From an uncultured bacterium (GTDB lineage: Bacteria; Margulisbacteria; WOR-1; CAVSGV01): a DNA stretch of 32,000 nt. The notes under the pieces are model-generated. The model searched no databases and had not been told where the DNA came from. It saw only the letters and a program-made list of their open reading frames with translations. Where the stretch lies: NCBI GenBank assembly GCA_963699255.1, contig OY969425.1, positions 1,650,001 to 1,682,000 of the forward strand. The letters are read 5' to 3'. Shown here piece after piece: positions 24,707 to 26,705 of the stretch (positions are counted from its first letter, which is position 1; each line of letters begins with the position of its first letter). The position numbers were made by a program, and so were the translations under genes.

Positions 24707-26705
24707 GAAAAAAGAAACAAGGGAATTTGAATCATTAAAGATCGGGTTAGCTTCGACCGAGAGGATCCTTTCATGGTCTTACGGAGAGGTTGAGAAGCCC
24801 GAAACCATCAACTACAGGACATTTAAGCCTGAGAGAAAAGGTCTTTTCTGCGAAAAGATCTTCGGACCTGTTAAGGATTGGGAGTGTCACTGCGGAAAAT
24901 ACAGAAGGATCAGGTACAGGGGGATCGTGTGCGAGAGATGCGGGGTTGAGGTCACCACTTCAAGGGTAAGGCGAGAGCGCATGGGACACATTAAACTTGC
25001 CGTACCCATTTCCCATGTCTGGTTCCTGCGCGGAATACCCGGGTTCATCGGCATTATGCTCGATACTTCCACAAAGCTGATCGAAGAGGTCATTTATTAC
25101 GATGCTTATATGGTCACCGAAGTTTCGCGGGAGGGTAAAGAAAAGATAAAACTGAAGGAAGGGCAGGTCCTCAGGGAAAGCGAATATCAGGAAGCAAAGG
25201 AAAAATACGGCAGCGCTTTCAAGGCGGAAACGGGTGCAAGAGCGGTCAGGGAGGTGCTGTCCAAGATTGATCTGCAGGCGACGGTTACCAAACTCAGAAG
25301 GGAAGTAAAAACTTCTGAAGGGCAAAAAAGGATCAAGATCGTAAAACGCTTGAGGGTCGTGGAGGGATTCTTTAAATCCGGGAACAAGCCGGAATGGATG
25401 ATACTGGAAGTCCTGCCTGTCATGCCGCCGGACCTGCGTCCGATGGTCCAGCTTGAGGGCGGAAGATTCGCGACCTCGGACCTGAACGATCTTTACAGGC
25501 GCATCTTGAACAGGAACAACAGGCTGAAGAAAATAATAAGCATGGGCGCTCCTGATATGATAGTAAGGAACGAAAAAAGGATGCTTCAGGAAGCTGTCGA
25601 CGTTCTGATAGATAATGGAAGAAGGAAAAGGGCGGTCACGGGATCAACGGGACGTCCGCTGAAATCCCTTTCCGATATCATAGAAGGAAAACAGGGAAGG
25701 TTCAGGCAGAATCTGCTCGGGAAGCGCGCTGACTATTCAGGAAGGTCCGTTATTGTTGTCGGGCCGACGCTTAAGATACATCAATGCGGGCTTCCGAAGG
25801 AAATGGCGCTTGAATTATTCAAACCGTTCGTTATAAGGAAGCTCGTTGAACGCGGTCTTTCTCAGAACGTAAAAAGCGCCAAGAGGCACATAGACAAGAG
25901 AGAGATATTCGTTTGGGATATTCTTGAAGAAGTGATCAAGGGGCATCCGGTCCTCTTGAACCGAGCGCCTACACTGCACAGGCTTGGCATACAGGCTTTT
26001 GAGCCGATCCTTGTCGAAGGGAAGGCCATACAGATCCATCCTCTGGTGTGTCCGGCATTTAACGCTGACTTTGACGGAGACCAGATGGCCGTGCATGTGC
26101 CGCTTCTCACGGAATCGCGGGTTGAAGCAAGACTCCTCATGCTTTCTTCAAGGAACATTCTCTCTCCCGCATCGGGCAGGCCGATCATCACACCTACACA
26201 GGACATGGTCCTGGGGGTCTATTTCATGACCGTTGATGATGAAAGGGTAGCACTGGGCAAGGGAATGAATTTCTCCTCCGACAATGAAGCAATGATCGCT
26301 CAGGATCTGGATCAAATTCATCTGCACGCGCTGATAAATGTCAGGAGGGACGGCCAGATGATCCAGACGACGGTCGGCCGCATCAAATTCAACAATACGC
26401 TTTCAAAAGTCCTGGCAAAAAGGGTTGCTGGGGAAAAGCTTGAATATATAAATTATACTGTTGATAAAAAGAAACTTGAGGCTCTTATCCTGTTCTTCTA
26501 CAAGAAATACGGGTCCGAGATAACCGCGGAAATGGCTGACGAGATAAAACGACTCGGATTTAAATATGCAACGATCGCCGGAATAACTATCGCTATAGAC
26601 GACCTGAAAGTCCCGTCGCAAAAAAAGCATATAGTTCAAAAGGCGACCAGGCAGGTAGAATCGCTTGATAAGCAGCTTAAGGCCGGGCAGATTCTCCAAG
26701 AATGA
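24696..26705 (+). CDS. rpoC: DNA-directed RNA polymerase subunit beta-prime, N-terminal segment (frame interrupted near 26691-26697)
   Basis: Zn finger [23 protein letters not shown] and catalytic [17 protein letters not shown]. 11-nt overlap with rpoB. Homology runs to ..[10 protein letters not shown], and this frame then stops 3 codons later (TGA 26703-26705). Confidence 0.95.

Follow-up and report, generated by a model that had tools for sequence, protein, structure and literature searches.

A single extra base in the rpoC gene of an uncultured Margulisiibacteriota bacterium is best explained as a consensus artefact

Here, we provide comparative evidence that the interrupted rpoC gene in the assembled genome of an uncultured Margulisiibacteriota bacterium most likely encodes beta-prime in one piece, as an ordinary gene of 1394 codons with CAG ATC TCC AAG as the true sequence at the break point. 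The extra T that separates the two halves of the gene is very probably an error of the assembled consensus that is absent from the DNA of the organism. This reading rests on the lack of the extra T in relatives, on dozens of similar breaks in the same assembly, including breaks in essential genes, and on the recurrence of one motif at the breaks, on either strand and in different codon phases. The rpoC insertion would then belong to a genome-wide class of single-base indels that is concentrated at RGATCY and above all at AGATCT.

The rpoC gene in the window and in its relatives

The window analyzed here is the whole 32-kb stretch G000:C1:1650001-1682000, which is part of a single contig of 1.77 Mb. 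It carries the gene order rplK-rplA-rplJ-rplL-rpoB-rpoC-rpsL-rpsG-fusA, and its rpoC is the only copy in the genome. The gene is present as two overlapping ORFs (Table 1), with the Pfam domains Rpb1_1/2/3 in the first and Rpb1_4/5 in the second. The reading switches from frame 3 to frame 1 within ATT-C-TCC (26691-26697), inside CAG ATT C TCC AAG (26688-26699), and the extra base is a single T at 26692/26693.

Table 1 Features of the interrupted genes (window positions) and of the endonuclease and methyltransferase genes (genome positions)
Feature	Position	Strand	Description
ORF A	24696-26705	+	669 aa, frame 3, C-terminus ...KAGQILQE(stop)
ORF B	26665 (TTG)-28881	+	738 aa from TTG, +1 frame relative to ORF A
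Overlap of ORF A and ORF B, 41 nt	26665-26705	+	TTG 26665 to TGA 26703-26705
rpoC N-terminal part, 666 codons, frame 3, through ATT (Ile666)	24696-26693	+	Rpb1 domains 1-3, NADFDGDQM, 97% identity to P0002 residues 1-666
10-mer AGATTCTCCA in rpoC	26689-26698	+	AGAT+T+CT, i.e., AGATCT (BglII-type) site plus extra T; frame change
rpoC C-terminal part, 728 codons plus stop, frame 1 from TCC (Ser667)	26695-28881	+	Rpb1 domains 4-5, 93% identity to P0002
Same 10-mer AGATTCTCCA in GT2 glycosyltransferase gene	12983-12992	+	Break into +1 frame
BglII-family endonuclease gene	G000 952993-953490		PF09195 (Endonuc-BglII), 70 bits; outside window
Methyltransferase gene	Adjoins PF09195 gene; pair G000:C1:952993-954326		PF01555, 200 bits, TSPPYN (SPPY motif); loci of the pair L159, L160

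A protein search with the read-through sequence retrieved the intact beta-primes P0002 (1394 aa, JGI contig) and P0003 (1398 aa, ENA k141 contig). These closest relatives are encoded at loci L165 and L166, respectively, on contigs of assemblies other than that of the window. Where the window reads CAGATTCTCC, both loci read GGACAGA-TCTCCAAGAA, i.e., CAG ATC TCC AAG (CAGA-TCTCC, with AGATCT). Alignment of the 4186-nt rpoC of the window with the P0002 gene (4185 nt) yields 87% nucleotide identity and exactly one gap, which is the inserted base at window position 26692. At the protein level, ORF A and P0002 share 97% identity over residues 1-666. Read in frame 1, the sequence from 26695 onward (SKNEHF...) matches P0002 residues 667-1393 at 93% identity in a gap-free alignment, and the two parts join exactly as ...GQI(666)/S(667)KNEHF. 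These identities indicate purifying selection on both halves of the gene.

A preliminary description of this region had regarded the beta-prime homology as continuous over the break and rpoC as otherwise intact, and both statements hold against P0002: no gaps interrupt the alignment on either side, NADFDGDQM is present, both halves are conserved, and the one extra base is the sole gap to the nearest relative. The reported jump from frame 3 to frame 1 in ATTCTCC and the overlap of 41 nt were confirmed from the ORF coordinates, and the comparison with the closest rpoC genes that the description had proposed finds these relatives without the extra T and unbroken at this point.

The same picture is obtained across a larger set of relatives. 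The window has one base more than all six relatives of the family at the break point. In about 30 rpoC loci of Margulisiibacteriota, the frame stays open for at least 2 kb on either side of the site; two contigs stop short, and locus L059 is an exception. The shift site is not conserved, as each relative with a contig that reaches it reads through in one frame. Neither an exact look-up of the 669-aa product nor metagenome scans with two patterns, an exact one that allowed a variable gap and a codon-degenerate one, revealed another assembly of the same species. The nearest relative is only 87% identical at the DNA level, and the comparison alone thus leaves room for a recent real mutation.

Locus L059 is the rpoC of the relative G002 (G002:C10:13486-17734). 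It consists of three ORFs, with two breaks in the tblastn survey that lie at other positions, where the rpoC of the window is intact. A break about 470 nt upstream of the break position of the window was also seen in the comparison of loci. G002 is presumably a long-read MAG. Broken rpoC genes are found in two assemblies of the family, and the gene is intact in MAGs that are taken as short-read assemblies. A separate peculiarity of rpoC is an insertion of about 225 aa in the trigger-loop region (window 27448-28133), which is common to all close relatives at equal total length (1394 aa) and, judged from sequence comparison, is a feature of the lineage and no artefact.

The 10-mer at the rpoC break also interrupts a second gene of the window, which encodes a GT2 glycosyltransferase. 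Pfam family PF00535 matches this gene with its positions 1-58 before 12992 and with positions 57-166 after it. The orthologue in G005 is a single ORF that reads AAGA-TCTCA (AGATCT) and is translated as ...NGLKISIIEN....

Single-base frameshifts across the assembly

The extent of such breaks was surveyed by fetching 1.28 Mb of G002 and running its uninterrupted ORFs by tblastn against G000. Within 763 kb of conserved coding sequence, about 33 single-base frameshifts were supported by homology, 19 of them insertions and 14 deletions. Gene fusions in G002 itself make a few of the 33 uncertain; two junctions that by eye represent fused neighbours in G002, hisF-ispA at 375252 and a glpA-like pair at 710390, are discounted yet contained in this number. 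According to NCBIfam, the broken genes include those for FtsH, IleS, CysS, PcrA, and NrdD. No further close copy of FtsH, IleS, CysS, or PcrA exists in G000; for NrdD there is an intact second copy with 70% identity. A first screen for in-frame stop codons was swamped by shadow ORFs and was then restricted to dominant ORFs of at least 250 aa, among which no convincing internal stop was detected in 182,000 aligned residues. No organism could carry genuine inactivations of rpoC, ileS, cysS, and ftsH at the same time, and gene decay also yields nonsense codons, so the observed profile is that of consensus indel errors.

Residual errors in nanopore consensus sequences are mainly indels that shift reading frames (PMC8011154). 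The breaks in G000 resemble such long-read (nanopore-type) consensus indels (Homopolish, PMC8011154) in that conserved genes are split while their homologues are intact, in that many occur per genome and affect essential genes, and in that nonsense codons are absent. They differ in their position at RGATCY/AGATCT instead of homopolymers; no enrichment of homopolymers, the classical nanopore error context, was found among the 33 breaks.

Two paralogous copies at G000:C1:870004 and 1055895, by eye integrase/recombinase genes, show the same one-base difference (GGCAT-AAAG versus GGCATCAAAA in G002). The same error may have occurred twice, or the two genomes may truly differ here.

Sequence context of the breaks and a predicted restriction-modification system

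The motif RGATCY was present in exact form in 8 of the 33 break windows (1.4 expected), and variants of RGATCY with a one-base insertion were present at 7 of the 19 insertion-type sites (2.2 expected). Taken as exact or variant, it accompanied 16 of 33 breaks, with 5.0 expected (P<0.0005). AGATTC or its reverse complement GAATCT occurred in five of the 33 break windows, compared to an expectation of 0.4. Ten families of control motifs showed nothing similar, apart from RAATTY (7 vs 1.7) and, weakly, RGTACY, RCCGGY, and SGATCS. The enrichment of RAATTY could reflect a second modified motif or chance. Plain Dam methylation (GATC) was also considered and found weakly supported (12 of 33 breaks vs 7.7 expected, P=0.06), and RGATCY fits better.

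A homology-free scan for positions at which a one-base deletion joins two long ORFs was used as support only, because much of its output is noise in which signals from ribosome-binding sites and ATGA junctions prevail. AGATTCT/AGAATCT sites were located at such ORF-fusing positions in 10 of 148 cases, compared to a background of 1.2%, and AGATTC was among the top 6-mers of the scan, beside ribosome-binding-site motifs. Five of 13 9-mers AGATTCTCC were situated at ORF-fusing positions, three of these five antisense to giant genes. In the cases supported by homology, the extra base appears as AGATTCT or as AGAATCT on the sense strand and in codon phases 1 and 2. The occurrence of the AGATCT-plus-one-base lesion in both orientations and in different phases excludes a ribosomal mechanism and identifies it as a DNA-level or read-level phenomenon.

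Uncorrupted in the assembly are 506 AGATCT sites and 73 AGATCTCC sites, which implies that the error would depend on context or coverage and would not be universal. Complete conversion of AGATCTCC to AGATTCTCC was considered as well and is ruled out by the 73 AGATCTCC sites that remain. Among 6-bp palindromes, AGATCT ranks second in under-representation, with an observed/expected ratio of 0.68. Giant ORFs (5-12.6 kb if fused) are broken at minus-strand GGAGAATCT/AGATTCT near G000:C1 positions 570046, 573857, 742796, 748758, and 826199, three of these sites being paralogous; the interruptions may be errors or true gene boundaries.

Elsewhere in the genome, a gene for a BglII-family endonuclease adjoins a gene for a PF01555 methyltransferase (Table 1). 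An SPPY motif is characteristic of N4-cytosine methyltransferases, among them M.BglII (AGATm4CT), and BstYI, a member of the same endonuclease family as BglII, cuts RGATCY. The two genes likely encode a restriction-modification system with a predicted specificity for AGATCT/RGATCY. As in BglII/BstYI-type systems, a PF09195 gene is located beside a PF01555 gene with an SPPY motif, and the error motif equals the recognition sequences of this family (AGATCT/RGATCY). The system described here is known from its genes and from the error contexts, and its specificity and modified base are predictions. Two more loci, G000:C1:1537284-1537943 and 1273156-1273956, code for DNA methyltransferases, one belonging to PF01555 like the first and the other to the D12 class (PF02086).

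In both rpoC and the GT2 gene, the extra T is positioned directly 5' of the cytosine that is modified in AGATm4CT. The modified cytosine might disturb long-read basecalling or consensus formation in such a way that a surplus base is inserted directly ahead of it. We consider it likely that a methylation-specific mechanism is behind the error at AGATCT. Species-specific DNA modifications are known to disturb the nanopore signal (PMC8011154). Methylation-linked nanopore errors are mostly described as substitutions in the literature, which counts against the proposed mechanism.

Alternative readings and implications

It is very unlikely that the T is genuine and that beta-prime arises either through an efficient +1 shift on AG-AUU-C-UCC-A, which the GT2 gene would use as well, or as two polypeptides that are split in a conserved segment. 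Programmed +1 ribosomal frameshifting at AUU-C-UCC, with the signal reused in the GT2 gene, would yield full-length beta-prime and agrees with the break of two genes in one 32-kb window on an identical 10-mer in the same codon phase, as well as with the intact and conserved state of both rpoC halves. It would share with the frameshifting of prfB (CUU-UGA-C) and yeast Ty1 (CUU-AGG-C) a +1 change at a defined heptamer within an intact gene. In contrast to these systems, the site in rpoC has no stop codon or rare codon in the A-site, no stimulator, and no conservation in orthologues, and neither strand nor phase restricts the motif. The AGATCT-plus-one-base lesion is also found on the antisense strand of further broken genes and in different phases, and the shifted site is present in no relative. 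The A-site codon is not a slow one, as CTC is used frequently (14.9 per 1000) and is served by a tRNA-Leu(GAG). At five positions where the heptamer ATT-CTC-C stands in frame, reading continues unshifted, as judged by homology on either side. No Shine-Dalgarno-like stimulator was found upstream of the rpoC shift site, and ARAGORN revealed no extended-anticodon tRNA among 44 ordinary tRNAs. Moreover, each of about 30 more frameshifts, of both signs and in unrelated sequences, would need its own rescue. Programmed frameshifting, taken by itself, is more improbable still. The ARAGORN search of the whole G000 genome also reported a tmRNA (tag ANQEFALAA); a tRNA-Asn (GTT anticodon) was not found by it.

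The least probable reading that we considered is a truly split rpoC with a genuine T, in which a polypeptide of about 75 kDa and one of about 80 kDa that starts at TTG 26665 would assemble as in cyanobacteria. Cyanobacteria are the sister group of the phylum Margulisiibacteriota and have a functional split beta-prime, a TTG is present in the ORF overlap, and beta-prime is distributed over two consecutive ORFs as in the rpoC1-rpoC2 genes (gamma and beta-prime) of cyanobacteria and plastids. However, the break is located in a conserved block at residue 666, about 50 residues beyond the gamma/beta-prime boundary at residue ~616, a position extrapolated from gamma chains of 624-625 aa that align to query residue 555 at chain residue 564. 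The preliminary description had correctly placed the break past the cyanobacterial boundary and away from a natural split point, but its estimate of about 80 codons is too large, the extrapolated distance being nearer 50 codons. The two ORFs overlap out of frame, and TTG 26665, as also stated in that description, is the only start for a stand-alone C-terminal ORF. It lies inside the overlap, and the product would begin with about 10 out-of-frame residues, i.e., there is no proper start for the second part. All Margulisiibacteriota rpoC genes examined are unsplit at the break point, and lesions of the kind seen in rpoC are numerous in the assembly. Highly unlikely, too, is a genuine T in a non-functional gene, either as a recent inactivating mutation or as a minority variant fixed in the metagenomic consensus. 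Single-contig metagenome assemblies may carry minority alleles into the consensus, but rpoC is an essential gene in single copy, ftsH, ileS, cysS, and pcrA are broken too, and the absence of nonsense mutations together with the clustering of breaks at one motif is a poor fit to random decay.

The preferred reading is an error of the assembled consensus. The essential gene is interrupted in the assembly, as the preliminary description had stated; its recoding and split-gene readings were not upheld, and the trivial error that it had itself named as a refuting outcome is now favoured. Extrapolation from 33 breaks in 763 kb suggests that the annotation of G000 contains roughly 70 false pseudogenes or split genes. 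Further frameshift findings in this genome are equally suspect, most of all near AGATCT/RGATCY. For the biology of rpoC, the break is of no consequence. The error pattern may serve as an indirect pointer to active BglII-like methylation in this uncultured Margulisiibacteriota bacterium.
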